Assembly: GCA_038321865.1 (NCBI GenBank)
Contig: JBBQFH010000003.1
Location: 1 to 64,000, forward strand
DNA from: Gemmatimonadales bacterium
Lineage (GTDB): Bacteria > Gemmatimonadota > Gemmatimonadetes > Gemmatimonadales > GWC2-71-9
Reading direction: 5' to 3'
DNA length: 64,000 nt
The notes below the pieces were generated by a model. That model saw only the letters and a list, made by a program, of their open reading frames with translations. It was not told the DNA's origin and searched no databases. This document shows, piece after piece, positions 11,382 to 63,704 of the stretch (within the stretch, counting starts at the first letter, position 1; every line of letters starts with the position of its first letter). The translations under genes and the position numbers were made by a program.

Positions 11382-11382
11382 A

Positions 11383-12161: not shown

Positions 12162-12254
12162 ATCGCGCTTACCAGTGATAAAGGAATCGAAGCCGTGTGC
12201 ACGATCATCCTATCTATCGGCACCGGCTCTGGCTCAGACATCGGTGCGCGAGCG

Positions 12255-12290: not shown

Positions 12291-12327
12291 ATTAGGCAGC
12301 AACTCACTCTTGCAAAGGCGGAGCGAG

Positions 12328-12840
12328 GTGACCGAAGATTTCCCGTACACAGCCTTTGAGCTTCCTGACGGTATAGACCCCGATCCCTGGGCGCGGGCGC
12401 TGCTAGAGCAAATCGAACGCGATGTGCGCCAAGGTAGTCGTGCGCCGTCCGATCGGCCACGAGTCTATTTCAGCGGCCACTCAATACGTGGAGATGACCA
12501 ACCACTTCAGGTAATCGCTGAGAATGATGCATACCGATCTGTTATAAACTTTGATATACGAGATTTTGATGCCGACGTACTGAGACGACGCGATTTGCCC
12601 AGTGATGTTGTTCCAGTGACGACCGCCAATGCAGGCTCCGGCCGGACGTGTTGTTTCCTGCGTGGGATCTGGCGTATCACCCTCCTGAATGGGCAATCCG
12701 CCCTGAGTTTTGTGAACGTCACGACTGGCGAGACCCGTGTGGTGAGCCTTAATGCACACGAGAGCATAGACGAGGCTCGGCTAGACAGCATGTACGCAAC
12801 GGACCTCCATGCATTGTTCCGCCGCAGCGGCGCCGAGTAG
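12328..12840 (+). CDS. Cassette: hypothetical protein
   Basis: ORF fills the cassette bounded by TTAGGCAGCA (12292) and TGCTGCCTAA (12851). Confidence 0.65.
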   Translation: MTEDFPYTAFELPDGIDPDPWARALLEQIERDVRQGSRAPSDRPRVYFSGHSIRGDDQPLQVIAENDAYRSVINFDIRDFDADVLRRRDLPSDVVPVTTANAGSGRTCCFLRGIWRITLLNGQSALSFVNVTTGETRVVSLNAHESIDEARLDSMYATDLHALFRRSGAE

Positions 12841-12854
12841 ACTCCGCATCTGCT

Positions 12855-12950
12855 GCCTAATCACTGCATGCAGCAGACGAGGGCGCCAGGCATTTGTGAT
12901 CGTTTGAGTATTTGATTGGCGCCCTCGCAGCTGATGCGACGGCATTACAC
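12855..12950 (+). repeat. attC site (AAT/ATT core)
   Basis: GCCTAAT...GAGGGCGCCA/TGGCGCCCTC stem...ATTACAC. Confidence 0.9.
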
Positions 12951-13160
12951 CGCCAAACAACTGCCGGGATGACATGGTAGATCGGTGCCAGCCGTTTGCT
13001 CTGATCCATAGGCATTGGAGCGACCGCCCGATCCGATGCGATAGGCGTTAATCCCGCAGGATGTTGAGGATCGCGTTCGACCGTCAGGGACACCGTTACA
13101 CACGATCTCCTTTCGGTGGAGCTACCCTAAGCCTGGGACTGACTACCCATACGCTGACCC

Positions 13161-16943: not shown

Positions 16944-17448
16944 ACATGTTGAGAGCACGACCGTGACATGGTTGGTCCCATTTCGCGGTCTCGTCAGATC
17001 GTCGGGATCCAAACATGGCGACCGAGATCGAGCAGGATGTCGCCGTGCCGCCTACTAGATGATCGCGGCCATCCGCGCCAACACAGGCGAGTTGCGCGCG
17101 TCACAACGTTCCCGACGGCCAGCGGAAGCTGGAGCAGAAGACTTGTTCGCTGCCAGCGAACTCTTTGCAAAGGCTAGGTTGATGCTTCACCCTGACAAAG
17201 CGAATCACGGTGGCAGGTCACGGGTTCGTGCAGGCGGAGATATATCGTCAGCGCATACGGGTCACGTACCATCGGACTTTGTTGACGCGTTCAAGACGCT
17301 CCAGCAGTTACAGCCGAAGGTCAGATACGGCAGTAACTACGCACTATCGATCCTCCTGAGGGTCGACGCCTCTCCAGCGGTTAGTGACTTTTGCTCGCAG
17401 ATTGCTGCAGGAAGACCACGGTGCCCCCCCACCGGACGAGGTTCGGCG

Positions 17449-17546
17449 GTCTATCACTGCATCCAGCCGGCAAAGCGGCCGGGCTTTTGCCCTGCATGCC
17501 TTGGGGAACACATGGCCGCTTTGCAGTTGATGCGAGGGCATTAGTC
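17449..17546 (+). repeat. Degenerate attC site
   Basis: GTCTATCACTGCATCCAGC...AAAGCGGCC/GGCCGCTTT...GTTGATGCGAGGGCATTAGTC; close to attC 54137. Confidence 0.8.
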
Positions 17547-17561
17547 GCCAGCGGAGTCAGC

Positions 17562-18041
17562 GTGATTCTGCATCTCAGCCACCGTATATGTAGGGGCAGT
17601 CACGCTGACCTATTTGATCCGGCGGACGGCTGGATCTACAAGCTATTTCGGACGAGCAAGCCGACGTTTCACAACGGTCGGGCTCTAGCTGCTTTTCATG
17701 CCGAGCTGGAAGCGTTCAGGCTCTCCGCGACTGACCCGATAATTGCGAACCACGTTCCGGCATTTAACGGCCCAACGCCGATCGATGCGGTACTGGACTC
17801 AGCCGGTAGAAGCCGAGCCGCATGGTACCTATTGGAGTGTTGCTATCGAACCGCGCGGCTACCAGGCCCAGAGTGCCGAGTATTCGGCTGGCCAGCTGAG
17901 CGAGAAGCTGAAGGAGCAGCGCTATTGAAACGCTTTGATGAAGTTGGGATCCGACACGCCGTCGACGCTTCCGTCTTTGGTACCGACCCGGGGCAGACCA
18001 TGAAGTTCGTCGACATAGCAACGTTCGACGCGCGCGCGTAG
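17562..18041 (+). CDS. Cassette: small protein with kinase-like motifs
   Basis: GGAG RBS + GTG; RGSHADLF, IYKLF, AELEAF, KFVD. Confidence 0.55.
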   Translation: MILHLSHRICRGSHADLFDPADGWIYKLFRTSKPTFHNGRALAAFHAELEAFRLSATDPIIANHVPAFNGPTPIDAVLDSAGRSRAAWYLLECCYRTARLPGPECRVFGWPAEREAEGAALLKRFDEVGIRHAVDASVFGTDPGQTMKFVDIATFDARA

Positions 18042-18060
18042 CAGGGATCCAGGCTTCGGC

Positions 18061-18157
18061 GCCTAATCACTGCATGCAGCAGACAGGGCCACCGGACTAC
18101 TCCGCATGTCTTGAGATATGATTCGTGGGCGCTGCAGCTGATGCGAGGGCATTACGC
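18061..18157 (+). repeat. attC site (AAT/ATT core)
   Basis: GCCTAAT...GCTGATGCGAGGGC-ATTACGC. Confidence 0.9.
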
Positions 18158-18163
18158 GGCGTC

Positions 18164-18655
18164 GTGAATGCAGCGAGGCTGTCATTGACCGTTTGGGCCG
18201 TCGTCATCTTTGTGGCACTTGCCATTTGGCTCGCGCGAGCTAGTGCAAAGCAGGCGCGCAAGCCCGTCGGGCCGCGTTTTCCGGAGCGCTACGATCTCGA
18301 CAATTCGCAGCACGTAGCGCTGATAGATCGAATCAGAGGCCGCTACAGCCATTTGATGGGGTACGATAACAGCCCATATGCAGGCTGCATGTACAAGCCG
18401 GCGAGCCTACTCCCGTATCCAAAGCCGGAAATCGAGAAGGCGATTCGCAGCTTGCTGTCGTACGCTAATGGCTCGAGTGGGTCGCGTTTGCTCAATCCAT
18501 CGATTCGCAACCAAGACGTCGTAGATCAGCTAGAGGTGGCGTTAGCCACTCTGACCATGTTCCTGGATTTACCGCCGCAAGACCTTCCCACTGAGCCGAG
18601 GCAGAATGGCGTGGTAGGTGCGGCGCACTGGAGCGCTAGCGAAGCAGGCGGTTAA
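18164..18655 (+). CDS. Cassette: hypothetical protein with N-terminal membrane anchor
   Basis: Hydrophobic segment then soluble domain; stop in degenerate R''. Confidence 0.65.
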   Translation: MNAARLSLTVWAVVIFVALAIWLARASAKQARKPVGPRFPERYDLDNSQHVALIDRIRGRYSHLMGYDNSPYAGCMYKPASLLPYPKPEIEKAIRSLLSYANGSSGSRLLNPSIRNQDVVDQLEVALATLTMFLDLPPQDLPTEPRQNGVVGAAHWSASEAGG

Positions 18656-18740
18656 TCAGTTGCATGCACCAGACCGGGCCACTGACGTTTAGACCATGCC
18701 TGGGATTTGAGTAGCGGCCTGAGGTAGCTGATCGAAACGC
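18650..18740 (+). repeat. Strongly decayed attC site
   Basis: GGTTAATCAGTTGCATGCACCAGACCGGGCCAC...GTAGCTGATCG; right core lost. Confidence 0.65.
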
Positions 18741-18836
18741 CGCCTGTACACGCGCGTGAGATCATTGGCGCCCGGGTCCGGTCCAGCAATTGGCCAATCC
18801 GCCGTACGTTCCACTGCCCCAGCCCACAGGCAGCCG

Positions 18837-19985
18837 ATGCGCAACGTGTTCATGCTCTATATGCCGCCGGGAAACCGGCAAGCCATGGTGCATTACGAGG
18901 ACACGATTCGCCAGCGGGTCCCGCTGGAGCGCATCGCGCCCCTCGTCAGCCGCAGCTTGGCCGATGAGCTGAAGCGCGTCTTTCAGTCGAATCGAATTGC
19001 CGTTTGGGGATCGGTTCCCGGGCCGCGCAACCAGCAGACGTTCGATCGGATGACCGCCGGCGATTACGTCCTCATCGTCGAGGGCGACCACATCCGGCTC
19101 CTGGGGCAGATTGCGGCGAAGACCGCTAACGCGGGGCTCTCGCACGAGCTATGGCGTCCGCTCCAAGGGGATGAGAATGCCTCCTGGTCTCTCGTCTACT
19201 TCATCGCCAATGCGCGCGAGCTCGACGTGCCCTTCTCGGCGCTGTGCGATCTATTCGGGTTCCGGAGCTCCTTTCAGCTTCGTGGCCTGACGGGCGTGGC
19301 GGCCAGCCGCCTCGAAACATTCTACGCTCGTTACGACGACCTTTACTCGGTGCTCGTGAAGCTGGAAGCGCGCCAGCCGATTGTCGAGCGCCAGGAGCCG
19401 AGGCCCGCAGCCTCCGTCGCCGCGGCGCCAGCAACCGAGTTGCAGCTTGACGATGTGGAGCGTGTGCTGCAGCCCGACGGAATATCGGACCACGTGCGCA
19501 TGCAGTGGAAGCTCGCGCGGCTCGGTATCAAGGCTGGCGAAAAGGTCTGGGTGCCAACTGGCGACCAGGGGAAGCTAAAGCGTTCGTTCGAGTTTGACGC
19601 TTTCGACAAGGAGTTCAGTTCGGGAATCGATCTACCACATTCCTATGTCGAGAACATCGATGTGGTCTGGAAGCAGGAGTTTCGCATCGCGGCCGCCTAC
19701 GAAATTGAGAATTCCACATCCATCTATTCGGGCCTGCTCAGGTTTTCCGACCTAATGATCCTGGCGCCGAACACCATCTACCCACTCTTCGTAGTCGCGC
19801 CGTCAGAGCGCAAGAACCGGCTCCGCGAGCAGCTCCGCCGGCCTACGTTCAAGCGGATGAATCTGGCGGAACACGTCAGGTTCCTGTCGTACGAAGCGGT
19901 GGATGAGATCGATGAGTTCTTCCAGCAGCATGAATCAGGACTGACTGTAGACATCCTCAAAGGCCGGTCGGAGGCTTCGGGTTGA
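18837..19985 (+). CDS. Putative restriction endonuclease: EVE/PUA-like N-domain plus PD-(D/E)XK-like C-domain
   Basis: IAVWG...TFDRMTAGDYVLI; ENIDVVW...AAYEIENSTSIYSGLLRFSDL. Confidence 0.65.
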   Translation: MRNVFMLYMPPGNRQAMVHYEDTIRQRVPLERIAPLVSRSLADELKRVFQSNRIAVWGSVPGPRNQQTFDRMTAGDYVLIVEGDHIRLLGQIAAKTANAGLSHELWRPLQGDENASWSLVYFIANARELDVPFSALCDLFGFRSSFQLRGLTGVAASRLETFYARYDDLYSVLVKLEARQPIVERQEPRPAASVAAAPATELQLDDVERVLQPDGISDHVRMQWKLARLGIKAGEKVWVPTGDQGKLKRSFEFDAFDKEFSSGIDLPHSYVENIDVVWKQEFRIAAAYEIENSTSIYSGLLRFSDLMILAPNTIYPLFVVAPSERKNRLREQLRRPTFKRMNLAEHVRFLSYEAVDEIDEFFQQHESGLTVDILKGRSEASG

Positions 19986-51199: not shown

Positions 51200-51340
51200 G
51201 CGGCGGTTGATCTACCGACGCGCCGGGCGCACGTTGCCCGGCGCGTCGGCACGTCCGTCACCTCGATCACGCGCGGGTGTTCCGCGCCGCCGGGCGCCGA
51301 TTTGGTGGGTGCAGTGGGTATGTGTGGTGCAACGTGCGCG

Positions 51341-52336
51341 ATGGCCGATGATCCGGGGTCCGTGCTGCCGGGCCCCTCGCGCCCGCGGCTGGTGGTGCAG
51401 ATCCGCCAGGCGATCCGGGTGCGGCATTACAGCCGGCGGACCGAGGAGGCGTACGTCGCGTGGGTGCGGCGGTACGTGCGCTTTCACGGGATGCGGCATC
51501 CCGCCGAGCTCGACGCGGGCGACGTCGCCCGTTTTCTGACCAACCTGGCTGATCGGGGCCGGGTGAGCGCATCCACCCAGAACCAGGCGCTGAGCGCGCT
51601 GCTCTTCCTCTATAGAGATGTGCTCGGCCGCGATTTTGGGTGGCTCACGACGGTGGTGCGGGCCAAGCGGCCCAAGCGGCTGCCGACGGTGCTCACCCGG
51701 GAGGAGGTGGCGGAGACGCTGCGCCGGCTGCCGGGGACGCGGCGGCTGATGGGCGAGCTGCTGTACGGCAGCGGGCTCCGGCTGCTGGAATGCATGCAGC
51801 TCCGGGTGAAGGACGCCGACTTCGGCGGCCGGCAGCTGATGGTGCGGGGCGGGAAGGGCGGGCGGGACCGGGTGACCCTGCTGCCGGGGGTGGTAGCGGG
51901 GCCGTTGCGCGCGCATCTGGAGGGGGTGGCCGCCCAGCATGCGCGTGATCTGGCGAGCGGGGCGGGGCGGGCGCCGCTGCCGGAGGCGCTGGAGCGGAAG
52001 TATCCCGGCGCGGGGCTCGAGTGGGGCTGGCAGTACGTCTTCCCGGCGACCCGCCTCCGCTGGGACCGGCTTCGGAAGGAATGGACGCGGCACCACCTGC
52101 ACGAGTCGGTGCTCCAGCGGGCGGTGTATCAGGCGGCGCGCGAGGCCGGCATCGCCAAGCGGGTGAGCTGCCACAGCTTCCGCCACAGCTTCGCGACTCA
52201 TCTGCTGGAGGACGGGTACGACATCCGGACGGTGCAGGAGCTGTTGGGCCACAAGGATGTGAGCACCGCGATGATCTACACGCACGTGCTGAACCGGGGG
52301 CCGAAGGCGGTGCAGAGCCCGGTGGACCGGCTGTGA
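51341..52336 (+). CDS. intI: Integron integrase
   Basis: [37 protein letters not shown] (integron-specific insertion), [27 protein letters not shown]. Confidence 0.97.
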
Positions 52337-52432
52337 CGGCGTCTCGGCGCGATCGCGTCGGGTCCGAGGGAGGTGGCGAGGCTCCTGACGCGGGCATCGA
52401 GGGATCTCGGACGGGTGGCGTGCCTGCTCAAT

Positions 52433-52498
52433 CCGGTTGCGGCGTGTCTCTCGCCGGTTGCGACGTGTCGCTCGCCGGTTGCGACGTTCCTCTCGCCG
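52433..52498. repeat. 21-bp tandem repeat, 3 copies
   Basis: CCGGTTGCG(A/G)CGT...TCG units at 52433, 52454, 52475. Confidence 0.8.
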
Positions 52499-52809
52499 CC
52501 GGCGAGGCTTCTGTGTGACGCCGCGTCCGGCCTGCGGGTGGTGAGGCGGGTGCTGGCGTGGGTGGCGGGGTTGCTGGCGGGCCGGGTCCGGTCATTCGCG
52601 GATGCCGCGGGGCTCCTGCTTTTGCCTGCGCGGTGTCTCTGTGTCCGATGGTGCCGCCTGACGCTTCCGGCGGCGACCCTCGCGGGTCCGGGCTGACGCC
52701 TGTCGGCTCGCGCGGCACTCGGGGCGGCTGGTGATCACTCGCGCCGGGCCGAGAAAGATTTTGAGCGGCTGAAGCGGGTCGCGCGCGCCCTCGGGCTGGC
52801 GGCGCTCGC

Positions 52810-52905
52810 CCTGATGCAGGACGCGCTCACCCTGATGCCGGCAGTGGGCGCCCTGATGCCGGCAGTGCGTGCGCTGATACCGGCGGTGCTCGCCCTGAAA
52901 GCGGC
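52810..52905. repeat. Degenerate 21-bp tandem repeat, about 4-5 copies
   Basis: CCTGATGCCGGCAGTG-type units at 52810, 52831, 52852, 52873, 52894. Confidence 0.75.
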
Positions 52906-53230
52906 ATGGGGCGGTCTACGGTGTCCGATATGCCGGCTGAGGGATGGTGAGGCGTCTGGGGGCGAAGTGGGGCGCTCGCTCGCGGCGCCGACAAGCGGCG
53001 CCGACAAGCGGGGGGGGGGCCCGGTGGCGGCCTCCTCCTGCGGGCGGTATGCTGGTATGAGCTGCGCGGTCCCGCGCGCCGAGCAAAGCCGCGGCGGCGG
53101 CAGTCTATTTCCCGCTGCCTATTCCCGCCGGATTGCAACGCAGGGCCCGTGGCGGACTTTCGCCGGCATGTCGGCCCTGGTCCGGGTCTGAACCGGCGTT
53201 GGGGGCGCGGTATTGTCTTTCTAATGGGCT

Positions 53231-53248
53231 GTCTAGTTCGCATTAGGC
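53231..53248 (+). other. attI candidate (ATT core)
   Basis: GTCTAGT-TCGC-ATTAGGC; TTAGGCGGC is the reverse complement of GCCGCCTAA ending cassette 1; AT-rich upstream; no attC left arm. Confidence 0.75.
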
Positions 53249-53267
53249 GGCAACTAGGAGGTCGTGT

Positions 53268-54134
53268 ATGCGGAGTCTTTCGTTCCTGATCGCGTTCACC
53301 CTCGGCCTCGGCGTGCCCGGCACCATCAGTGCGCAGAAGCACTGTGCCGCCCGTGATGCCAATGGTGTGGTCCGCGGTCAGGTGCTCGACGAACTTGCGC
53401 GGCAGCCGGTCGAGAATGCGCTGGTGACCGTTCCGGCGTTGCCTGGATGCGCGGTTGTCACGGACGCGCGCGGTCGATTTGGATTTCCGCGCCTAGCCGT
53501 CGGTCCGACGCGGCTGCACGTGGCCTTCGTCGGCTTGCACACTCCCGACCACACGATCAGCGTTGCCGCCGGCGTGCCAGCAGATGTCACCATCCTGCTT
53601 CAAGGCTTCCGGGAGCCCGACATCGCCACTCTGGACCGCTTACCCCCGGCGGAACAGATGAGCATGCTGCAGGCGGTGATCGCCTACTACCGTCAGCCAG
53701 ACCGCGATGGTGAGGTTGCGGCGGTTCGCGAAACCGAACGTGTGACCGGAAGCAGGCCCACGCCTGCACTGGCTCAGCCGGGGTTGCTGTTGTATGTGGA
53801 TTCCGAGACCGTGACAGCGATCGATTCGGCCGCATTGCGCGCAACCGGCACGCAGGTATGCCGGCCACCACAGCTCGCCGGGTGCCCAGGCAATGGCGCG
53901 GTTACGTTTCTCCGCCTGTGGGGACCGCGCCGGACCACCGTAGACACCGCGTTCTATCGAGTTGATGACTTGGTGGCCGATCCTGCCGCTTGCCGCCGCG
54001 GGAACGGCTTCGTGGGCTCATCGCGCAGCGTCGCTATTGTAGCGCGTGGCAGTGACGGCTGGAAGGTCGTCGAATCCCGTCCGAGCTTGAGTGCATCCGG
54101 TAGCTGCGGCCCGCGCCGGCGCGCGGCGCGCTAG
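53268..54134 (+). CDS. Cassette 1: secreted protein with carboxypeptidase-regulatory-like domain
   Basis: AGGAGG RBS, signal peptide, VRGQVLD...TDARGRF. Confidence 0.8.
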   Translation: MRSLSFLIAFTLGLGVPGTISAQKHCAARDANGVVRGQVLDELARQPVENALVTVPALPGCAVVTDARGRFGFPRLAVGPTRLHVAFVGLHTPDHTISVAAGVPADVTILLQGFREPDIATLDRLPPAEQMSMLQAVIAYYRQPDRDGEVAAVRETERVTGSRPTPALAQPGLLLYVDSETVTAIDSAALRATGTQVCRPPQLAGCPGNGAVTFLRLWGPRRTTVDTAFYRVDDLVADPAACRRGNGFVGSSRSVAIVARGSDGWKVVESRPSLSASGSCGPRRRAAR

Positions 54135-54136
54135 CC

Positions 54137-54235
54137 GCCTAATCACTGCATGCAGCCGACAAAGCGGCCGGGTTTTCTCTCTGCATGCCCGAAGTACCTG
54201 ATGGCCGCTTTGCAGCTGATGCGAAGGCATTAGGC
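54137..54235 (+). repeat. attC site (AAT/ATT core)
   Basis: GCCTAAT...ATTAGGC. Confidence 0.92.
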
Positions 54236-54624
54236 CGCTCCAGCGGTCCAGCAAGAACTGGTCGTGGGTTCCTTGATCGGCGCCGCTCCGATGCCGGAGC
54301 GGCAGCCCGGGTGCCCGCCCCCGCAGGTCGCGACGCTAGTCGCTGCGGAAGCGTTGCATTCGCTCAGCGGGCGCCCGCACCTGGCGCGCTGGCGGCGCGG
54401 GCCCAAAGCCATCGGCGCGTCGAGGCAGAACGATCGTGGCACCGCCAGCACGGCGATCTGGTTGGGCGCGCCGCGTCCCTCGATCCAGTGACATTCCGGT
54501 GCTGCGCCCGGCGGCCCCGGTTGGGAGCGTCGGCGCCCATCGTGTGACAGCGGCGCACGGTGCGCCGCGGAACAGCTGGTCTGCGTCGGGCGGCCGAGTG
54601 TGCCGGGTCCATCGAGGGCTAGCG

Positions 54625-54720
54625 TCCTAATTACTGCATGCAGCAGACAGGGCCACCCGAGTTCATGCCATTAGCATAGAATTGATTAGTGGCCCTGCAG
54701 CTGATGCGAGGGCATTAGAC
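54625..54720 (+). repeat. attC site (AAT/ATT core)
   Basis: TCCTAAT...ATTAGAC. Confidence 0.9.
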
Positions 54721-54805
54721 AGGCACGACTTCGGAGGGTCCAATCGAGGAACTTGTTCAGCGTGAGAACTTCACGGCCCGCGATCCGGCAGTTGAAGCCC
54801 GTGTC

Positions 54806-55429
54806 ATGCGCGCGGTCATCGCGCTAATTGTCGTTCCGACCGCCGCGTTCTGCGTCGCGATCTACATGGACTGGAGCCTGCGCGGTCAGGCGTTCTGGCG
54901 GGGGCTGTTCCTCTCCGTCGGCATGAGCCTCTTCTTCAGCGTCGGCCTAACGGCGCTTGCCTTTTTGGTAACGGCGCCTTCCACGCTACGGCGATTGCGA
55001 CAACGATTGGATATGATCTTCGCGAACGACCCGCGGGTTGTGCCGCTGGCTCCGCGTGACGCCACACACCGGCTGGTTTGCGCATGGGTACTCCCGCGCC
55101 GGCGCTTCTATGGCGGGAGCCTCTATGTCTGCGCGACAAGGCTGCGGTTCCAAGGCCACTATCCCGTTGCCCCTTGGTGGCGCCGCGCCCATGAAGAGAC
55201 CCTGGCCCTCGACCTGGGGCCGCTGCGATCCATTGTCATCGAGTGTGGGACGTTGTCGCGAACTTGGTGGGAGCGTTGGTTGGCGGTACCCGCACTTATG
55301 GCAATGGTTCTCAGGTCAGAGGACATCGAACTGATACTACGCTGCGCAGCTGTCGAGGAGGCGGCTCGCGGCCTCGAGGCCTGCCTTGACCGGCTTCGGC
55401 ACGAGGGCACAATGGCCCCGCCTGTCTAA
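54806..55429 (+). CDS. Cassette 3: membrane protein
   Basis: Two hydrophobic helices; stop inside R''. Confidence 0.7.
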   Translation: MRAVIALIVVPTAAFCVAIYMDWSLRGQAFWRGLFLSVGMSLFFSVGLTALAFLVTAPSTLRRLRQRLDMIFANDPRVVPLAPRDATHRLVCAWVLPRRRFYGGSLYVCATRLRFQGHYPVAPWWRRAHEETLALDLGPLRSIVIECGTLSRTWWERWLAVPALMAMVLRSEDIELILRCAAVEEAARGLEACLDRLRHEGTMAPPV

Positions 55430-55520
55430 TCACTGCATGCAGCAGACAGGGCCACGAGAGTTCAAACCATTCTTAGGCATATGATTAGTGAGCCCTGCAG
55501 CTGATGCGAGGGCATTAGAC
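55424..55520 (+). repeat. attC site (AAT/ATT core)
   Basis: GTCTAAT...ATTAGAC. Confidence 0.92.
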
Positions 55521-55537
55521 CGCCACGGAGATCATGT

Positions 55538-56020
55538 ATGCTTCGCTGGATCGGAGCCCTCGTCCTGCTTCTGGGCACCAGTCGGGCACTGCCCGCGCAG
55601 ACCCCGGCGGCGCCACGTCCGAAGGGCGTTCCGGCGCCCACCGCCATCGCGGGACGTCCGGTATGGGACACCAGCTTCGTGCGCGTGCTCAACGCGCCTG
55701 AGCTGCTCGCGGAAGGCGCGGCCGGGCGCCCCCAGCTCCGGGTCCGCGTCACCGGAGTGCTCGGCGCGTGGGCCGAGCTCGACTGCGACTGCCTCCTGAC
55801 CACGCTCTATATCGCGGTGAGCGATGGCGCCGAAGACGAGGCGACGCTGCGTGCCTTCCGGCTCCCGGGGCTGCTGGATCCCAAGATCGACAGCTTGGTG
55901 ACGGAGGCGGACGTGCCCGTGCTCTACGTCAGCTATGGTCTCGCTTCGCAGCGGCGGATCGCGCGGCTGGCGGTCAGCCTTCAGGGGGTGCGCAGCACCG
56001 GAGCGCGAGCCCGTCAGTGA
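55538..56020 (+). CDS. Cassette 4: secreted hypothetical protein
   Basis: GGAG RBS, signal peptide. Confidence 0.7.
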   Translation: MLRWIGALVLLLGTSRALPAQTPAAPRPKGVPAPTAIAGRPVWDTSFVRVLNAPELLAEGAAGRPQLRVRVTGVLGAWAELDCDCLLTTLYIAVSDGAEDEATLRAFRLPGLLDPKIDSLVTEADVPVLYVSYGLASQRRIARLAVSLQGVRSTGARARQ

Positions 56021-56026
56021 GTCGCG

Positions 56027-56122
56027 GTCTAATCACTGCATGCAGCAGACAGGGCCACCGAGCTACTCCGCATGTGCTGAGATATTGATAGTGGCCCTGC
56101 AGCTGATGCGAATGCATTAGAC
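56027..56122 (+). repeat. attC site (AAT/ATT core)
   Basis: GTCTAAT...ATTAGAC. Confidence 0.92.
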
Positions 56123-56148
56123 CGCAACAACGCTCAGCCGGAGAACCG

Positions 56149-56418
56149 ATGATCTCCCAGTGTTCGCAGTGCAGCGGTGCGCTTGTTCGAGGCGATCTAC
56201 GGTCAGGCGTGCTCAGCTTCGGCGACTTCTTCGTTGAGCACGCAGGCGATGAGCGGACATTCATGGGTGCGCCGAAGCCCCGCCCCGGCGTCCAGCGTGA
56301 CAATCGCGTTATCTCATTTGCGTGCACGCAGTGCGGACTTGTGACGAGCTACTTGGAGCGTGCGCTCGCGCCGGGCTCGGACGGCTCCCAGGGGATTTCC
56401 GGACCGCCTGCGGTCTAA
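56149..56418 (+). CDS. Cassette 5: small zinc-ribbon protein
   Basis: CSQC...CTQCG; stop inside R''. Confidence 0.75.
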   Translation: MISQCSQCSGALVRGDLRSGVLSFGDFFVEHAGDERTFMGAPKPRPGVQRDNRVISFACTQCGLVTSYLERALAPGSDGSQGISGPPAV

Positions 56419-56508
56419 TCACTGCATGCAGCAGACAGCGCCACCGGGCTACTCCGCATGTGTTGAAATATGATAAGTGGCCCTGCAGCTGATGCGAGGG
56501 CATTAGAC
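56413..56508 (+). repeat. attC site (AAT/ATT core)
   Basis: GTCTAAT...ATTAGAC. Confidence 0.92.
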
Positions 56509-56526
56509 AGCCAAGGAGGTTGCGAT

Positions 56527-56961
56527 ATGGCAGATCCATTTGCAGGCGTGAACCTTCCCAGTTTCTCCGTGCCGGAAATCCGCATGCCTAGTTACGGCGC
56601 GGTGTCGGCTGCGCAGATGGAGGAGATCTCGCGCAGCTTGGCCGAGGCCGCGGACGCGAAATCCGCCCGAGGCCTAGTCAAACGCCTCATGGCTGAGGTC
56701 CGCGAGTTTGAGGAGAGACTCGACGAAAGTCACGAGGTTGGCGTGAGGCTCGTCTCGTTCGGTCAGAGTTTGGTATTCCATGTTCACCAGATCGGCTATA
56801 TCCAACCCAACCTGGTCACTTTCGCTGGGACTACTGACGATTCTCAGCCAGTGCGTCTCGTGCAGCATATGAGTCAACTGAGCTTCCTACTCATGCGTGT
56901 TCCGCGGCTCAACCCGGAGCAGCCGCGTCGCCCTATCGGCTTTAGGGAAAGTTCAGAGTAG
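56527..56961 (+). CDS. Cassette 6: DUF6173-like protein
   Basis: AGGAGG RBS; EVGVRLVSFG...QHMSQLSFLL...RRPIGF. Confidence 0.75.
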   Translation: MADPFAGVNLPSFSVPEIRMPSYGAVSAAQMEEISRSLAEAADAKSARGLVKRLMAEVREFEERLDESHEVGVRLVSFGQSLVFHVHQIGYIQPNLVTFAGTTDDSQPVRLVQHMSQLSFLLMRVPRLNPEQPRRPIGFRESSE

Positions 56962-56966
56962 CGGCT

Positions 56967-57063
56967 GTCTAATCACTGCATGCAGCAGACAGGGCCACGA
57001 GAGTTCAAGCCATTCTTAGGCATATGATTAGTGGGCCCTGCAGCTGATGCGAGGGCATTAGGC
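56967..57063 (+). repeat. attC site (AAT/ATT core)
   Basis: GTCTAAT...ATTAGGC. Confidence 0.92.
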
Positions 57064-57085
57064 AGTTACACGAACTTGAGGCTCC

Positions 57086-57478
57086 ATGCGACCAAGGATT
57101 GTTGGCAGCCATGACGGCGAACCAGTCTCGCCTGGGCTCCGCCCGCTGCTCAACGACGCCTACGACGAGATTGTTCGGCAGCCATCGAACCTTGGAGCGC
57201 TCAAAGGTGCACTCGATCGCATGCTAGCCTTCCTCTGCTCGGCTCAAGGCAGGACTGCCGCGAACTGCATAGAGGTCGATCGTTTCTTCTTCGCGCACAT
57301 GCTGGACGGCGTGACCTGGGAGCATTTGCCCGAGTCGTACACGGACGTGATGGGCGACATAGGTGGCCAACTCCATAACACGTTTGCCGCACCAGAAATG
57401 GCGGAGAACTTCGACGGCACACCGGAGCAGCTCCTTGAACAGGTGCGCGCGTTGAAGATCGATCCGGGTACTGCCTAA
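57086..57478 (+). CDS. Cassette 7: hypothetical protein
   Basis: ORF fills cassette; stop inside R''. Confidence 0.75.
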   Translation: MRPRIVGSHDGEPVSPGLRPLLNDAYDEIVRQPSNLGALKGALDRMLAFLCSAQGRTAANCIEVDRFFFAHMLDGVTWEHLPESYTDVMGDIGGQLHNTFAAPEMAENFDGTPEQLLEQVRALKIDPGTA

Positions 57479-57570
57479 TCACTGCATGCAGCAGACGAAG
57501 CGGCCGGGCCTTGATGTGTGTCCCTTGAGAATCATTTGGCCGCTTCGCAGCTGATGCGAATGCATTAGGC
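57473..57570 (+). repeat. attC site (AAT/ATT core)
   Basis: GCCTAAT...ATTAGGC. Confidence 0.92.
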
Positions 57571-57601
57571 GGCTCCGAACACCTGGGCCGCGCGCCGCGG
57601 G

Positions 57602-57949
57602 CTACTCATGGCGATGAATCAGCGCTCCGATCAGCGCACCACTGCCGGTGCCAACGACAACGAGGCCTACAGCGCGGCCCCAGCCAGGGCAGTCGGCGTT
57701 TGCGTCTGAATCGCACTGCGTAAGGCTGACAATTGCGAGTGCGGTTCCTGCGACAGCCCCAATGATGAGGCCGCGCTTCCACTGATTCGGCTGGTATGGC
57801 GCCGGCGCACGAACTGAGGCGGCGGTATGCGCGACGGACCATGAAACGATAACGGGGTTCGTGCGTGGGCCTTGGGCGATGGCGGCGGTCGCGAGACAGA
57901 GGCTAGCCAGAGCGCCCCCGACAGTGGTGAGTGCATGGCGCGCTCGCAT
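57602..57949 (-). CDS. Cassette 8: inverted gene for a small secreted glycine-zipper-like membrane protein
   Basis: Signal peptide; GLIIGAVAG...C..C...GALIGAL. Confidence 0.65.
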   Translation of the reverse strand: MRARHALTTVGGALASLCLATAAIAQGPRTNPVIVSWSVAHTAASVRAPAPYQPNQWKRGLIIGAVAGTALAIVSLTQCDSDANADCPGWGRAVGLVVVGTGSGALIGALIHRHE

Positions 57950-58100
57950 TCGGGAACTCCGTGCGGAGGGATTGTCCAGCCTAACGCGATCAGTGTCAGG
58001 AAATCATGAGGTGCACGTGAGAGGCCCGGACTCTGTTCCGCGCGCTCGCGCACTCACTCAAGAACAGAATGAAGGGGAGCCGGCGGTTGTTGGGACAGCC

Positions 58101-58197
58101 GCCTAATCACTGCATGCAGCAGACAGGGCCACCGGCGCCCTCAGCAGTCTTTCGGCATTTGAATGGAGGCCCTGCAGCTGATGCGAGGGCATTAGGC
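58101..58197 (+). repeat. attC site (AAT/ATT core)
   Basis: GCCTAAT...ATTAGGC. Confidence 0.92.
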
Positions 58198-58232
58198 GGC
58201 TGCACAGCCCGTCGTTAAAACCACGAGGTTCC

Positions 58233-58919
58233 ATGCGCCGAACCGCACTCGTGCTTACGCTAGTCTTCATCGGCACCCGACACGCCCAGTCGCAAACGAT
58301 CGGAGCCGTTTGTACGGCGGTGGATCGGCACGCGCTCGTGCGAACAATGACGGTACCCCACTTCCGGGACTATCAGCCCCAGTTAATCGCAGCGCTGACG
58401 GGGCGCGAAGCGAGCGAGCCGTCGCAAAATCAGGTGACCGCGCTTTGGGCGGCCGACTCGGTGAGCGTGCTTTGGAGTCTGTCGGCGATTGTCGCGCACC
58501 CGGAGCAGGTAGGCTCGGAAACGGCTCGCGCGGCCGCCATGATGTACAAGGCACATCATGGCCCGGCCGCCATCATGCTCGTCGGGCAACTCGAGGGTCA
58601 GGTGGCTAGTGAGGTCGCGGTGCCTGACGCCTTGGAGGCCGTGACGCCGCCGCTGCAGCCTCTGGAGGAGGAAGCGGTGTTTGCGCTGACGTGTGATGCA
58701 GTGTGGTTACTGAACGCGTTGGCGCAGGATACGGCCTACAGGGTGCCAAGGCAGCCGACATCGCGCATCCGTTGGGCCGGCCTTGCGGCGGCCACATTAC
58801 GTGAGGGTGCGCGTCTCATAAGAGGCGGTCGCCGACCGATCTTGCTTGGGTGGATCGCCGACCTCAAGGCGCGTGGTGTGCTAACAGACCAGCATAGCGA
58901 GTTCGACGTCGCCCACTAG
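58233..58919 (+). CDS. Cassette 9: secreted hypothetical protein
   Basis: GAGG RBS, signal peptide. Confidence 0.7.
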   Translation: MRRTALVLTLVFIGTRHAQSQTIGAVCTAVDRHALVRTMTVPHFRDYQPQLIAALTGREASEPSQNQVTALWAADSVSVLWSLSAIVAHPEQVGSETARAAAMMYKAHHGPAAIMLVGQLEGQVASEVAVPDALEAVTPPLQPLEEEAVFALTCDAVWLLNALAQDTAYRVPRQPTSRIRWAGLAAATLREGARLIRGGRRPILLGWIADLKARGVLTDQHSEFDVAH

Positions 58920-58934
58920 AATCACGCGAGCCCC

Positions 58935-59031
58935 GCCTAATCACTGCATGCAGCAGACAGGGCCACCGAGCCACTCCGCATGCCTTGAAATATGATGAGT
59001 GGGCCCTGCAGCTGATGCGAATGCATTAGGC
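58935..59031 (+). repeat. attC site (AAT/ATT core)
   Basis: GCCTAAT...ATTAGGC. Confidence 0.92.
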
Positions 59032-59054
59032 AGCAACCATTCACGGAAGGCTTC

Positions 59055-59504
59055 ATGATGACCGCCGCGATTCACGCGATCGGCTCCCCACCAAAACGGG
59101 ATCGCACGGCTTCCGTCCTGCAAACGGCGCGCGTCGCGTTGGCCGTCGCAGGCGCCGCGGCGCTGTACCGCGTTGCCGTCGCGGTTCTGTCGACTCTCGT
59201 TGATGGACCGTCGAAGGTTCGATTTCTCCTTTTTTATGGCACAATCGCGCTGGTCGCAGTCGCGCTGCGGTGGGGCGTTGATCGGCGCGCGAGCGTTGCT
59301 CGCTGGGCCTGCGTGGTCGCCGGGCTCCCAATGGTGGCCGCCCTCATTCGTGGTCGCGGAGCGTTTGCCACCTTTTGGCACTACTTCCCGGTGCCAGTCG
59401 CCGACGTACTCCTTTTCCTCGTGTGGCCGCTGATGATCATCGGCTTCGTTGTGGCGGGAGCTTGTTGTGCGCTAGCGCAATCGGACTCCGCACGCTGGCG
59501 GTAA
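59055..59504 (+). CDS. Cassette 10: membrane protein
   Basis: About 4 hydrophobic helices. Confidence 0.7.
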   Translation: MMTAAIHAIGSPPKRDRTASVLQTARVALAVAGAAALYRVAVAVLSTLVDGPSKVRFLLFYGTIALVAVALRWGVDRRASVARWACVVAGLPMVAALIRGRGAFATFWHYFPVPVADVLLFLVWPLMIIGFVVAGACCALAQSDSARWR

Positions 59505-59526
59505 CCCCAGCTGTTGTGGCGCGGCC

Positions 59527-59622
59527 GCCTAATCACTGCATGCAGCAGACAGGGCCACCGAAGCCCTCAGCATTAGCGTAGAATTGATTAGTGGCCCTGC
59601 AGCTGATGCGAATGCATTAGGC
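59527..59622 (+). repeat. attC site (AAT/ATT core)
   Basis: GCCTAAT...ATTAGGC. Confidence 0.92.
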
Positions 59623-59639
59623 TGCTTCAAGGACCGCCA

Positions 59640-60122
59640 ATGACTCAAGCTGCACGTCGTGTTCTATCGGATTGCGAAGCAGCGCTCACTGACTTCCGCG
59701 GCTCGACGGGCCTGGAGTGGCGCACACGGTGGGTTTCGGTCATCACCCTGCTACGGGCAGTCGGTCACGTCCTAAAAAAGATTGATAGTCATGCCAGCCC
59801 GGCAGCTGCAGCGGCGATTGACGCAGCTCACGGTCGTCTCTGTGCATCGAGGCCGGAGCCGAAGATCTTCTGGGAATTTATCGAGCAAGAGCGAAACAAT
59901 CTGCTCAAAGAGTATGAGTTTGGCGCCCAGCAGAGTGTGACGGTACGGCCGGGTGGCGTTTGGATCAACATGAAAACAGGCGAGTCTGGCGCAAATCCAG
60001 CAGGGCTGACGAGCTACTCCCAACTTATGCGCGCTGGCCCCTTTGCAGGACAAGACCCATGCGATGTGGCGGCGCAGGCGATCGCATGGTGGAGATCGTA
60101 TTTGGACAGCGTCACATTGTAG
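59640..60122 (+). CDS. Cassette 11: helical hypothetical protein (possibly HEPN-like)
   Basis: AAGGA RBS; LRAVGHVL...ERNNLLKE. Confidence 0.7.
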   Translation: MTQAARRVLSDCEAALTDFRGSTGLEWRTRWVSVITLLRAVGHVLKKIDSHASPAAAAAIDAAHGRLCASRPEPKIFWEFIEQERNNLLKEYEFGAQQSVTVRPGGVWINMKTGESGANPAGLTSYSQLMRAGPFAGQDPCDVAAQAIAWWRSYLDSVTL

Positions 60123-60136
60123 CACCCGTGGCAGCA

Positions 60137-60232
60137 GCCTAATCACTGCATGCAGCAGACAGGGCCACCGGCCTACTCCGCCTGTCTTGGGATATGATTA
60201 GTGGCCCTGCAGCTGATGCGAGGGCATTAGGC
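60137..60232 (+). repeat. attC site (AAT/ATT core)
   Basis: GCCTAAT...ATTAGGC. Confidence 0.92.
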
Positions 60233-60344
60233 CACCACCGGTAAGCCTCACGCGTTTGTTATGATTTGCTCATCTTGCCGTCAGCGGCCGGTCAACCGAC
60301 CAGCGTAATGTTTAAGGGACAGATCCCTCGACTGGAGGTCCCTA

Positions 60345-60851
60345 ATGCGCGCCGCTTCCTCCCTCACTGCCCTGACGCTCCTGTGGTCATTCGGGGTTAT
60401 CTGGCGCTTGACCCCCGATGGCCTGGTGAATCTGAGTTCAGCCACCGCACCTATGTCGGGATTTGTTTGTCCGGAGGGACCGCCGCCACCGCCACCACCT
60501 CCGCCCATTCCAGACCCCGTCCCGCTGGCGGTGGCCGTGCTGCAGCGGGCGAGCGAGGTCATCGTCCCTAACGACGGCGACGCGCCTGAGACGCTGGCCT
60601 GGCAAATGATCGAGGCGGATGCCCGGGCTGACAGCATCTGGATTGAGCTAGGCGGGGCGCAGTCGCCGGCGGCGCGGATCTACGCGTTGCGCGGGCTGGT
60701 CTGGACGGATCCGGTGCGGTCGGCGCGCTTGGCGCAGGAGCTTCGGCAGCAGCCGGACGTTGTCACGATCCGCCGCGGAGATGTCGTGCAAGTCCTGCCG
60801 ATGGCCCGGGCCGTCGAGCGCGCAGGGAATCCCGAGTGGCCGCACCGCTGA
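60345..60851 (+). CDS. Cassette 12: exported protein with poly-Pro linker
   Basis: GGAGG RBS, hydrophobic N-terminus, P8 run. Confidence 0.65.
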   Translation: MRAASSLTALTLLWSFGVIWRLTPDGLVNLSSATAPMSGFVCPEGPPPPPPPPPIPDPVPLAVAVLQRASEVIVPNDGDAPETLAWQMIEADARADSIWIELGGAQSPAARIYALRGLVWTDPVRSARLAQELRQQPDVVTIRRGDVVQVLPMARAVERAGNPEWPHR

Positions 60852-60887
60852 CGAGGTCGCTGTAAACCGCCGCTTCGTGCGCCGGTA

Positions 60888-60984
60888 GCCTAATCACTGC
60901 ATGCAGCAGACAGGGCCACCCGGCTACTCCGCATGTCTTGGGATATGATTAGTGGGCCCTGCAGCTGATGCGAATGCATTAGGC
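60888..60984 (+). repeat. attC site (AAT/ATT core)
   Basis: GCCTAAT...ATTAGGC. Confidence 0.92.
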
Positions 60985-61019
60985 CGCAACTGAGCTCCGT
61001 AGACCGCAACCAACTTCTC

Positions 61020-62534
61020 TTGGTATTCGTGCACCAGCCGATCGAGAAAGCCGAGCCGACCACGTCGTCCGAGGCGTTATTGGCGCGACTCGCGACCGGC
61101 GCCTTCCTGACACCCTGGAGCTACCCCCGTGTGCACCGGAACCAGCCTGCCCAGAGCGGAGCGGTCATTGGCAAGGAGCTTTGTGACCTTCTTGTCGTCT
61201 TCGGCAAACATGTCATCATCTTCTCAGACAAGGCGTGCGCGATCGGTCGCTCCAGCGACCTGCAGAAGGACTGGTCTCGGTGGTATCGGCGGGCAGTACA
61301 AGCCTCTGTGCGGCAGGTCCTAGGCGCAGAGCGCTGGCTGCGAGAGCATCCGGACCGGCTATTTCTGGATCCACGGTGCACGACGCCGTTCCCATACGCC
61401 CTGCCGCCTGCTAGTGAAGCGGTCTACCACCGTATCGTCGTCGCGCGCGGCGCAAGCGTGCGCTGCACTCGCGAACTCGGCGGTTCCGGGAGCATGATGG
61501 TGCAAAGCCACGTCACAGGCGAGCCAGATGCTACTCCCCCGCCTTTCACGGTTGGTAATCCCAGCCCGCAGCATGGGGTGATCCACGTACTCGACGATAG
61601 CACGCTGACGTACATCTTCGAGGCACTGGATACGATCGTGGACTTCACTGACTACCTCGACCGGAAAGAGCGGCTGTTCACTTCGGAGGTTGAAGTCTGG
61701 TCAGCAGGCGAGGAGGAGCTTCTAGCTCACTACCTCAAGAACGTGGGATCTGACGGTCACCACGATTTCGTAATCCCACCTGACACGAACGCAGTGGCGT
61801 TCGAGGAAGGAATCTGGGAGGACTTCCAGCGCAATCCCCAACGCATCGCTCAGCTCGAGGCAAACCGGATTAGCTATGCTTGGGATCGGCTCATCGAGGT
61901 GTTTAGTGAGCACGCCTTCGCCGGAACTTCCCAGTTTATATCTCACCCAGGCTTCGGCACTCACGAGCAGTTGCTCCGAGTGCTAGCGAGCGAGGGTCGA
62001 ACGCAACGCCGAGGACTCGCGGAAGCACTCTTCGGCATTCTCAGGGACACTCCCTCCCATTTGCGCGGGACGCGGGTGGTGATACCAGAGCGTCCGGACC
62101 TCCCGTACTATGTGTTCTTGCTGTTGCCGTGGAGGGATGACAAGCCTGACGAAGTGAATCGCCTAGTCAGGCGCAACTTCCTCGAGGCATGCTGCCTGAC
62201 CGTCAAGCTGATACGTCCCGAGGCGCAGACCGTCGTTGGACTTGCGACGGAGAGCGGTCGGACGAATGGAGGATCCGAGGACCTCCTGCTCCTCGACGCG
62301 CGCAAATGGACCCCGGAATTAGAAGCAGAGGCGCGAGAGCTACGCAGTAGGCTGCACCTATTTCCGGAAGTTACACTGCGACCGTATCATCTTAGAGAGT
62401 ATCCTGAGGTCAGTGATGACAAGCCACGCCGGCATGGAACCCGACCGCCAAATAGACCCGCCGGAGGGCCGAGCCGGAACGGCCCCTGCCCGTGCGGCAG
62501 CGGGAAGCGCTTCAAACAGTGCCACGGCAAATAG
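61020..62534 (+). CDS. Cassette 13: NERD-like nuclease-domain protein with C-terminal SEC-C motif
   Basis: KELCDLLVVF...IIFSDK...Q; RNGPCPCGSGKRFKQCHG. Confidence 0.8.
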   Translation: MVFVHQPIEKAEPTTSSEALLARLATGAFLTPWSYPRVHRNQPAQSGAVIGKELCDLLVVFGKHVIIFSDKACAIGRSSDLQKDWSRWYRRAVQASVRQVLGAERWLREHPDRLFLDPRCTTPFPYALPPASEAVYHRIVVARGASVRCTRELGGSGSMMVQSHVTGEPDATPPPFTVGNPSPQHGVIHVLDDSTLTYIFEALDTIVDFTDYLDRKERLFTSEVEVWSAGEEELLAHYLKNVGSDGHHDFVIPPDTNAVAFEEGIWEDFQRNPQRIAQLEANRISYAWDRLIEVFSEHAFAGTSQFISHPGFGTHEQLLRVLASEGRTQRRGLAEALFGILRDTPSHLRGTRVVIPERPDLPYYVFLLLPWRDDKPDEVNRLVRRNFLEACCLTVKLIRPEAQTVVGLATESGRTNGGSEDLLLLDARKWTPELEAEARELRSRLHLFPEVTLRPYHLREYPEVSDDKPRRHGTRPPNRPAGGPSRNGPCPCGSGKRFKQCHGK

Positions 62535-62551
62535 GTCCAGTTATGCTTGCG

Positions 62552-62647
62552 GCCTAATCACTGCATGCAGCTGACAAGGGCACCAGGCCACGAGGCATTG
62601 GCGAACATATTGTAGGTGCCCTTGCAGCTGATGCGAGGGCATTAGAC
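62552..62647 (+). repeat. attC site (AAT/ATT core)
   Basis: GCCTAAT...ATTAGAC. Confidence 0.92.
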
Positions 62648-62700
62648 GTCTGCCGAGTTTGGCAGTAGCTTTCCAAAGCCCTTCTTCCCTGGAACCCTCT

Positions 62701-62907
62701 ATGGTTATCACGATCGAACTGGAGCGCGAGACGGACGGCCGCTGGATCGCCGAGGTCCCGAGCCTGGCCGGGGTGGTGACCTACGGGGCCACACGCGACG
62801 AGGCCGTGGCCCGGGTCCAAGCCCTGGCGCTCCGGGTCTTCGCCGATCGCCTCGAGCACAGCGAAACCGCCCCCGAACTGCTGGATCTGCACTTCCAAGC
62901 CGCGTGA
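62701..62907 (+). CDS. hicB: HicB-family antitoxin
   Basis: IELERETDGRWIAEVPSLAGVVTYGATRDEA. Confidence 0.85.
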   Translation: MVITIELERETDGRWIAEVPSLAGVVTYGATRDEAVARVQALALRVFADRLEHSETAPELLDLHFQAA

Positions 62908-62945
62908 GCGACTGGCCGGCCACCAAGGCACGGCGGTCGAGCTAG
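62904..62945 (+). pseudogene. Truncated HicA-like toxin start
   Basis: GTG overlapping hicB stop, MSDWPATKARR then early stop. Confidence 0.5.
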
Positions 62946-62959
62946 GTGAGGGCGCGCGG

Positions 62960-63244
62960 CTAGTAGTGGTAGCGGGCTTGGAGGAATTCGATGCGGTCCG
63001 CGAACACCTCGTACACCAAGCGGTCCGCTTCGTTGATACGTCGCGACCAGACGTTGCCGCCAAGGTGTTTCAAGTGCTCGGGCTTGCCGAGGCCGGCGAA
63101 GGGTTCACGCAGCACGGCCTCCATCAGATCGAGCACGCGCAAGGCGGTCTTCCGGTTCGTGTCCACCCAGTAGTGGAGATCCTCGCGGAATTCGTCCTGG
63201 AGCGCCGCCACCCGCTTGGTCGAGGCCATGGCGGTGTCAGACAC
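62960..63244 (-). CDS. yoeB: Txe/YoeB family toxin
   Basis: EDLHYW, PFAGLGKPEHLK, WSRRINEADRLVY, QARYHY. Confidence 0.93.
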   Translation of the reverse strand: MSDTAMASTKRVAALQDEFREDLHYWVDTNRKTALRVLDLMEAVLREPFAGLGKPEHLKHLGGNVWSRRINEADRLVYEVFADRIEFLQARYHY

Positions 63245-63247
63245 CCA

Positions 63248-63535
63248 CTACGCGGGGTCCTCGAGGCCGAGCTCACGCCGCACGGCACTCAGATCCTGGG
63301 TTCGCGTCCGGCCGCGGCGGCCGCGCGTGAGGGCCGCCAGCAGCCGAGCGGCATTCTGCGGCGAGCGCAGCAAATAGGCGGTCTCGCGCAGACTGGCGAG
63401 CTCATCGGCTGGAATCAGGGCCATGTCTTCGTGGCCCCGGCGCTGGATGACAGCCACGTCGCGGCTATCCTCGACGGCGTTCCAGATGTCCGCAAGGTGT
63501 TCGCGGGCATGACTATAGCTGACTTTGATGCTCAT
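63248..63535 (-). CDS. yefM: Phd/YefM family antitoxin
   Basis: VSYSHAREHL, LRETAYLLRSPQNAARL. Confidence 0.93.
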   Translation of the reverse strand: MSIKVSYSHAREHLADIWNAVEDSRDVAVIQRRGHEDMALIPADELASLRETAYLLRSPQNAARLLAALTRGRRGRTRTQDLSAVRRELGLEDPA

Positions 63536-63550
63536 GGCGCCTCCGTTTGA

Positions 63551-63573
63551 CTTGTACAGAGACATTGTACAAG
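63551..63573 (-). promoter_or_regulatory. YefM-type operator
   Basis: Two TGTACA palindromes (63553, 63566) just upstream of yefM. Confidence 0.7.
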
Positions 63574-63607
63574 ATAAGCGCTTTGCGGTCAAGGTCTGGC
63601 AGCGCCT

Positions 63608-63704
63608 GCCCAATCACTGCATGCAGCAGACAGGGCCACCCGAGTTCATGCCATTAGCATAGAATTGATTAGTGGGCCCTGCAGCTGATGCGAGGGCATT
63701 AGGC
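63608..63704 (+). repeat. attC site (AAT/ATT core)
   Basis: GCCCAAT...ATTAGGC. Confidence 0.92.

Follow-up and report, generated by a model that had tools for sequence, protein, structure and literature searches.

In the integrons closest to the one described here, the class 1 system (IntI1, attI1 and attC) and the VchIntIA/VCR system, an integrase with an IntI-specific region acts with an attI site adjoining its gene, intI, and with attC sites built of R''-L''...L'-R' boxes. The introduction of Frumerie 2010 (PMC2811028) calls the AAC/GTT triplet common to attC and attI 'completely conserved'. The explanation current in the field (that paper, and Nivina 2016, PMC5027507) is that GTT is retained only because it lets every integron trade cassettes with every other. 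The authors of Frumerie 2010 argue that this conservation serves cassette exchange, not mechanism: IntI1 recombines the engineered pair attCaadA7-ATT x attI1-ATT at the wild-type rate (1.0), ATT x GTT pairs reach 3.1e-3 and 3.4e-3 (about 300-fold down), and the structure of VchIntIA is described as making no base-specific contact to this nucleotide. A full-text literature search, with most subscription journals outside its reach, found no description of natural AAT/ATT attC cores. We report an integron with such cores in a Gemmatimonadales bacterium of soil or sediment, located in the first 64 kb (hereafter the window, the whole stretch analysed) of a 143-kb contig from a 3.4-Mb metagenome-assembled genome (MAG). 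The nearest precedent for it is that engineered ATT/ATT pair, with which the locus shares the G1 to A change, its compensation in the folded attC and the matching substitution in attI; the natural case is one that existing experiments largely predict. Whereas the engineered pair was constructed for assays of IntI1 in E. coli, the state found in the window is natural, and fixed in arrays of at least two species as well as on environmental contigs. We consider it probable that this is a natural, lineage-wide and compensated switch of the docking base in an otherwise canonical chromosomal integron, with a partly isolated cassette pool and an unchanged integrase.

The attC array occupies positions 54137-63704 of the plus strand, where 14 sites of 96-99 nt bound 14 cassettes. 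The sites lie at 54137-54235, 54624-54720, 55424-55520, 56027-56122, 56413-56508, 56967-57063, 57473-57570, 58101-58197, 58935-59031, 59527-59622, 60137-60232, 60888-60984, 62552-62647 and 63608-63704. Every one of them starts with YAAT (13 TAAT, one CAAT) and ends with ATTA, whereas a canonical site reads YAAC...GTTA; AAC/GTT is thus replaced by AAT/ATT at 14/14 sites and at the attI candidate. The plus-strand consensus is ...YCTAAT-CACT-GCAT[G]CAGC-AG[A]C-stem...stem-GCAGCTGATGC-GAGGGC/GAATGC-ATTAGRC, in which L'' CAT[G]CAGC pairs with L' GCTGATG, GAC comes next, and a stem follows. A first-pass annotation had announced this YAAT...ATTA pattern for the 14 array sites and for three sites upstream, and reading every site bore it out, together with the attC architecture claimed for them (L''/L' pairing, GAC, stem, length of 96-99 nt).

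Save for the triplet, the window sites are canonical attC in every respect tested. A covariance model, R1, was built from 21 canonical GTT sites at 14 loci of relatives, with the R- and L-box structure annotated on the alignment. It finds all 14 array sites at full length and on the plus strand only, with scores of 43.1-57.6 bits (E <= 6e-9). In the resulting alignment 92.4% of the structure cells are paired, and 18 of 19 rows have U-A as the pair beside the crossover, a single weak row keeping C-G. U-A, which takes the place of C-G in the R box, is a standard base pair, and the compensatory replacement of C:G by T:A next to the crossover, as first proposed, is directly observed. When the bottom strand is folded as single-stranded DNA, it is predicted to pair a 7-bp R box and the L box, with bulged bases on the 3' arm opposite 5'-AAT-3'; two of these would stand 6 bp apart, the separation that Nivina 2016 (PMC5027507) gives as required for recombination. 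With canonical attC the sites have in common the pairing of their R and L boxes, a central spacer left unpaired, bulges opposite the cut triplet and a variable terminal loop. The second bulged base is a conserved T, 6 bp from the first. The L'' bulged base is a bottom-strand C (top-strand G) throughout this Gemmatimonadales attC family, GTT members included, and in this respect the family departs from canonical integrons, whose L'' bulge is usually reported in the literature as G on the bottom strand.

The cassettes themselves indicate where recombination takes place. The seven variable bases that follow each ATTA were set against the seven that precede the xAAT of the next site, read as reverse complement. 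They agree at 84 of 98 positions; with permuted ends the figure is 62.8 +/- 3.6, and none of 20000 permutations reaches 84. Pairing the two flanks of one and the same array site gives 62/98, which is background. Cassette starts are therefore complementary to their own ends, as had been noticed at the outset from a few examples, so that the mobile units are circularly permuted and bounded inside the ...GCATTA stretch of R', as canonical cassettes are. This boundary bears on the possibility that the repeats are only attC-like, and are recombined away from the canonical position or by another enzyme. Such a reading could draw on the exact cut being unmapped, and on the absence of any Rfam match in the whole window at gathering thresholds, although Rfam may lack an attC family. 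We nevertheless hold it to be very improbable, given that the sites align at full length to a model of canonical sites, follow immediately after an IntI gene, show cassette permutation with its boundary in the canonical place and have their bulged bases in canonical geometry.

The permutation rule also yields the attI candidate (53221-53251, plus strand), which reads ...GTTCGC A|TTAGGCGGC with a predicted crossover between A53242 and T53243. It was located from cassette 1, whose start, TTAGGCGGC, matches the R'' flank of its own attC, GCCGCCTAA, at six of seven variable positions. The A at 53242 agrees with the A|TT usage initially suggested for attI.

The integrase gene intI lies at 51302-52336 on the plus strand and encodes 344 aa from a TTG start, although the true start may be a few codons downstream. 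The product matches NCBIfam TIGR02249 with 434.2 bits (cut-off 265) over profile positions 2-315 of 315, and contains the Pfam domains Phage_integrase and Phage_int_SAM_4. It aligns with VchIntIA (PDB 2a3v) over residues 30-344 with an E-value of 1.7e-83 and one single-residue gap, and has the IntI-specific region and the catalytic R-K-H-R-H-Y residues of an integron-type tyrosine recombinase. In this alignment K185, H295, H317 and Y326 match K160, H271, H293 and Y302 of VchIntIA, and T47, Y51 and G186 are likewise identical to T22, Y26 and G161. The position of the catalytic tyrosine, Y302, is our own count on the alignment, the IntI1 equivalent being Y312 (Frumerie 2010).

These residues weigh on whether the integrase has changed along with its sites. 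The first-pass annotation held that this IntI had shifted specificity, and proposed aligning it with IntI1 or VchIntIA to examine the residues contacting the R box; all the residues that Frumerie 2010 lists near the cleavage site (VchIntIA T22, Y26, K160, G161, H271 and H293), and the catalytic tyrosine, proved to be conserved. An integrase that co-evolved to prefer A:T at the crossover, so that enzyme and sites both contribute to the barrier, would fit with every site and attI having changed together. VchIntIA W157 does align with an arginine in the window protein, and since the latter is 53-73% identical to the IntIs of relatives, residues beyond those compared could matter. Yet IntI1 needs no change to perform ATT x ATT recombination, and PMC2811028 describes no base-specific contact at this nucleotide. 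Moreover, ATT arrays are found with two IntI lineages, as detailed below. A changed integrase is thus not needed, because IntI1 recombines ATT x ATT at the wild-type rate, the cleavage-site residues are conserved and two IntI lineages are involved; we regard a shift in the enzyme as unlikely.

The second lineage comes from another species of the same genus (genome G005), in which 7/7 survey sites are ATT and all seven also read TAAT at R''. When 20 IntIs of relatives were placed in a tree, the window IntI paired with that of a further genome of the genus, G004 (support 99), its closest relative at 73% identity, whose gene lies at a contig end. The partner of the G005 IntI is instead the integrase of G021, whose array is GTT (support 86). 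When the three IntIs of the genus are constrained to a single clade, the log-likelihood falls by 25 units (approximately unbiased (AU) test, p-AU 0.033). About 115 nt after the G005 intI stop codon, GTCCAATACTA-ATTAGGCC aligns with GTCGAATTGAC-GTTAGGCC of G021, which is attI by the permutation rule, and G005 reads A where G021 reads G. This alignment therefore places an A at attI in the second IntI lineage too, and ATT arrays appear to accompany two IntI lineages within one genus.

The distribution of the two site types was surveyed in 401 genomes of the same family with the pattern GCAGCTGATGCG, 4-7 bases, RTTAG. The pattern occurs at 465 sites in 74 of these genomes, and its ATT-only version at 26 sites in six. 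ATT makes up 15/15 sites in the genome studied here and all of those in G005, but only 4/443 outside the genus; given this background, an all-ATT array such as that of the window lies far beyond chance. The four outside sites differ from one another. One, in G309, is a complete and compensated ATT-type site standing alone; another, in G383, retains AAC at R''; a third, in G252, is a remnant without a recognisable 5' half; and the last, in G156, has a 3' half identical to that of G252. Four more genomes belong to the genus (G001-G004, 66-87% complete), and neither the pattern nor R1, which scored 150 of the thousands of candidates in each, detected any attC in them. In the genome studied here (G000), a solitary site of the same family was seen near position 21653 on the minus strand of contig C17, with CAAT at R'' and ATC replacing ATT at R'.

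Beyond this family, a 19-mer spanning R''-L'' was scanned in one genome per species. ATT arrays appeared on two contigs binned as Sphingomicrobium (six sites) and on one binned as Casimicrobiaceae (one site). These contigs (L084-L088 and L091; DATEIK010000189.1, DATEIK010000120.1 and JBDTLK010000221.1) are short, and may represent either mis-binned Gemmatimonadales DNA or the transfer of ATT cassettes to other phyla. A 19-mer match in a Veillonellaceae contig was dismissed as chance, with no attC around it. In a gammaproteobacterial MAG, one site reads AAT at R'' and GTT at R' and is hence uncompensated. Single sites in which just one side of the pair has changed (AAT facing GTT, or AAC facing ATT) were noted at L089 (CAWBBR010000002.1), L074 (minus strand, 8454) and L072 (minus strand, 3363); such half-changed sites may be intermediates a single step along the way, or sites in decay.

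When metagenomes were scanned for the ATT form of the L'-R' half, 41 loci on 37 contigs were obtained. Taking metagenome and MAG contigs together, 80 of the 83 full, non-redundant sites on ATT loci combine AAT with ATT, and the remaining three are mis-anchored matches of the regular expression. Among the 5' halves, which played no part in contig selection, T is found 87 times and C once; the 3' halves carry A in 90/90 cases and G in none. All ATT-type sites have further private features, namely a CACT spacer, a 3' spacer of 5-6 nt and a short loop, and they form one attC subfamily, probably a lineage-specific variant of the family that related Gemmatimonadales use with a GTT core. With 0/90 3' halves reading GTT, no GTT site of this attC family was found on the ATT contigs, as would be expected if the cassette pool were partly orthogonal. 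That portion of the original proposal is supported; its attribution of the orthogonality to the enzyme's own specificity is unsupported or unnecessary. The genome survey also shows a restriction of ATT sites to one clade, within which two IntI lineages appear. A tblastn search with the window IntI found no intI beside the ATT arrays on other contigs (L071-L134), whose flanks extend for 2-3 kb only.

Several points weigh against the reading of a lineage-wide switch that leaves the integrase unchanged. The pattern surveys count only sites with the exact GCAGCTGATGCG L' box. Of the 443 sites outside the genus, 43, all of them GTT, come from two unpublished genomes (G205 and G254), without which the ratio becomes 4/400. 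As for the genus, a 'genus-wide' ATT state rests on two species. The evidence for a second IntI lineage is itself marginal in the AU test, where the group was named after the tree had been seen, and in G005 intI (contig C46) and the array (contig C27) are on different contigs, so that the link between them is one we infer. The cut can be placed within the ...GCATTA stretch but not at an exact phosphodiester bond. Recombination by the window IntI is deduced from the DNA, none having been observed directly, and the barrier of about 300-fold was obtained with IntI1 on other sites, so that its size here would be known by analogy.

If the switch is as we propose, the integron most likely works like any other. 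IntI would fold the attC bottom strand, cut in the R box at AA|T instead of AA|C, and exchange with attI or with another attC. The T carrying the 5'-OH would then dock on the partner's A, this being the only nucleotide of homology read. The change from G:C to A:T beside the cut, in attI and in every attC, would accordingly alter a base that serves as docking homology only. Because a single docking nucleotide would be read, ATT sites should recombine normally with ATT and only poorly and rarely with GTT, which would leave a largely private cassette pool and place the barrier in the sites and not in the enzyme. As to how a whole pool could be converted, the single attC subfamily fits the idea that new cassettes receive copies of an attC particular to their lineage; a change in this template, if matched by a mutation in attI, could then be enough. 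Uncompensated sites might stand for single-step intermediates of such a process, the order of events being speculative. A broader proposition is that one docking nucleotide, changed from G to A, has split a cassette pool from the universal exchange network, and that this split is carried by the sites (attI and an attC template copied onto new cassettes) and not by the integrase, spans at least two IntI lineages of one Gemmatimonadales genus and is common in environmental DNA; here we find belief and doubt evenly balanced.

A further cluster of attC sites is present upstream, at 10933-18157 on the plus strand. It comprises sites at 10933-11028, 12855-12950, 17449-17546 (degenerate) and 18061-18157, scored by R1 at 57.7, 43.1, 24.4 and 36.0 bits, respectively. 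All four, 35-43 kb upstream, show the ATT core, and the three intact ones, starting at 10933, 12855 and 18061, have it in the form YAAT...ATTA. A cluster of attC sites without an integrase nearby is known as a CALIN. This stretch alone in the window qualifies as one, with at least two attC sites and no adjoining intI, the integrase gene being more than 33 kb away. Its G+C fraction (positions 10100-19000) is 0.60-0.63, against 0.68-0.70, and it includes a TIR-domain open reading frame (ORF; 11442-12161) and an ORF of 1260 aa with no known family (13161-16943). The stretch resembles a fragment of a cassette array that has been displaced or is in decay.

In the main array, most cassettes hold one plus-strand ORF without a Pfam family. 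Cassette 1 (53243-54229, plus strand) carries a secreted protein ORF (53268-54134) with a carboxypeptidase-regulatory-like domain (PF13620), and its attC scores 55.8 bits with R1. Pfam also identifies a DUF6173 ORF (56470-56961), a SEC-C-motif protein ORF (61020-62534) and a YoeB/YefM toxin-antitoxin pair (62960-63535, minus strand). The latter belongs to cassette 14 (62648-63704, plus strand), the only cassette whose start mismatches its own end. From about 62926 to 63704, this cassette has 84% DNA identity to a cassette on other ATT contigs, where the cassette start does match this end. Cassette 14 is thus probably a fusion, in which a small plus-strand ORF (62701-62907) has lost its own attC and become joined to the YoeB/YefM cassette. 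The YoeB/YefM cassette recurs with different neighbours in several ATT arrays (L084-L086, L098 and L131), at 90-94% protein and 84% DNA identity.

These cassettes also inform the question of whether the array is an inactive relic, in which ATT is a fixed neutral change without effect on cassette traffic. There is no direct evidence of recent recombination, the YoeB/YefM cassette reaches only 84% DNA identity between arrays, one fusion has lost an attC, and the upstream cluster seems to be decaying. A dead array, however, would lose the compensation that is kept at 14/14 sites here and at 80/83 sites across contigs. In addition, cassette starts still match their own ends, intI is intact, and the same cassette is found with different neighbours. 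We therefore judge a relic to be decidedly unlikely, even less credible than a shifted integrase. One DNA sequencing run contains the window region, as contigs ending at each attC. Three contig 'joints' in that run, with 30-33 letters on one side and lying in repeats, were set aside as likely effects of the assembly graph and are uninformative on crossover or activity. In the same run, summed depth is 44-190 in bins 53864-54254, 57774-58164 and 60120-60510, against about 9-12 elsewhere; these jumps at some attC bins imply that this attC family is present on many other contigs of the sample.

The layout of the locus also sets it apart from canonical integrons. The gene intI is usually, though not by strict definition, divergent from the cassettes; here both are on the plus strand. 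Co-orientation was likewise observed in ten intI-linked arrays of related Gemmatimonadales (31 sites, L026-L040; genomes G021, G032, G026, G038, G025, G027, G033, G008, G014 and G015), and is the rule in this group. The arrays of these relatives, and of relatives only, were read with a crude generic attC finder that mis-paired the window's own sites. Treponema-type and other integrons also have intI and cassettes on one strand, and their core triplets are not known to depart from GTT. GTT relatives of the window array, among them G021, G032, G026, G008 and G015, resemble it in the order and family of their host, in the co-oriented intI, in the L boxes GCATGCAGC...GCAGCTGATGC, in GAC and in the R-box flanks YCTAA / TTAGRC. 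They differ by AAC/GTT, by sites that are mostly longer (90-141 nt versus 96-99 nt) and by the spacers adjacent to the R boxes, as in GCCTAAC-CA-GCGCAT[G]CAGCTG[A]CGAGGGCG...GCAGCTGATGCGC-CAGTC-GTTAGGC. The spacer between intI and the attI crossover (52337-53241, plus strand), with the left part of attI at its 3' end, is unusually long at 905 bp, compared with about 115 bp in G005 and G021. Tandem Repeats Finder locates repeat arrays in it at 52433-52498, 52540-52579, 52804-52906 and 52982-53011, with periods of 21, 21, 21 and 13, and no sigma-70-like promoter was found between intI and attI.

GTT/AAC has been treated as invariant, and a natural ATT lineage is the very case that the cassette-exchange explanation predicts. 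It allows this explanation to be tested with real partners, ATT and GTT sites being offered to the window IntI and to that of a GTT relative. In practice, integrons of this kind may be under-counted by attC models and cassette polymerase chain reaction primers that rely on GTT or AAC, and the two site types offer a natural orthogonal pair for integron-based DNA assembly tools. For the biology of integrons, the locus suggests that cassette pools can become isolated. If the proposed reading is true, it would provide a ready-made orthogonal integron pair and show, in nature, how pools of integron cassettes can become reproductively isolated from one another.

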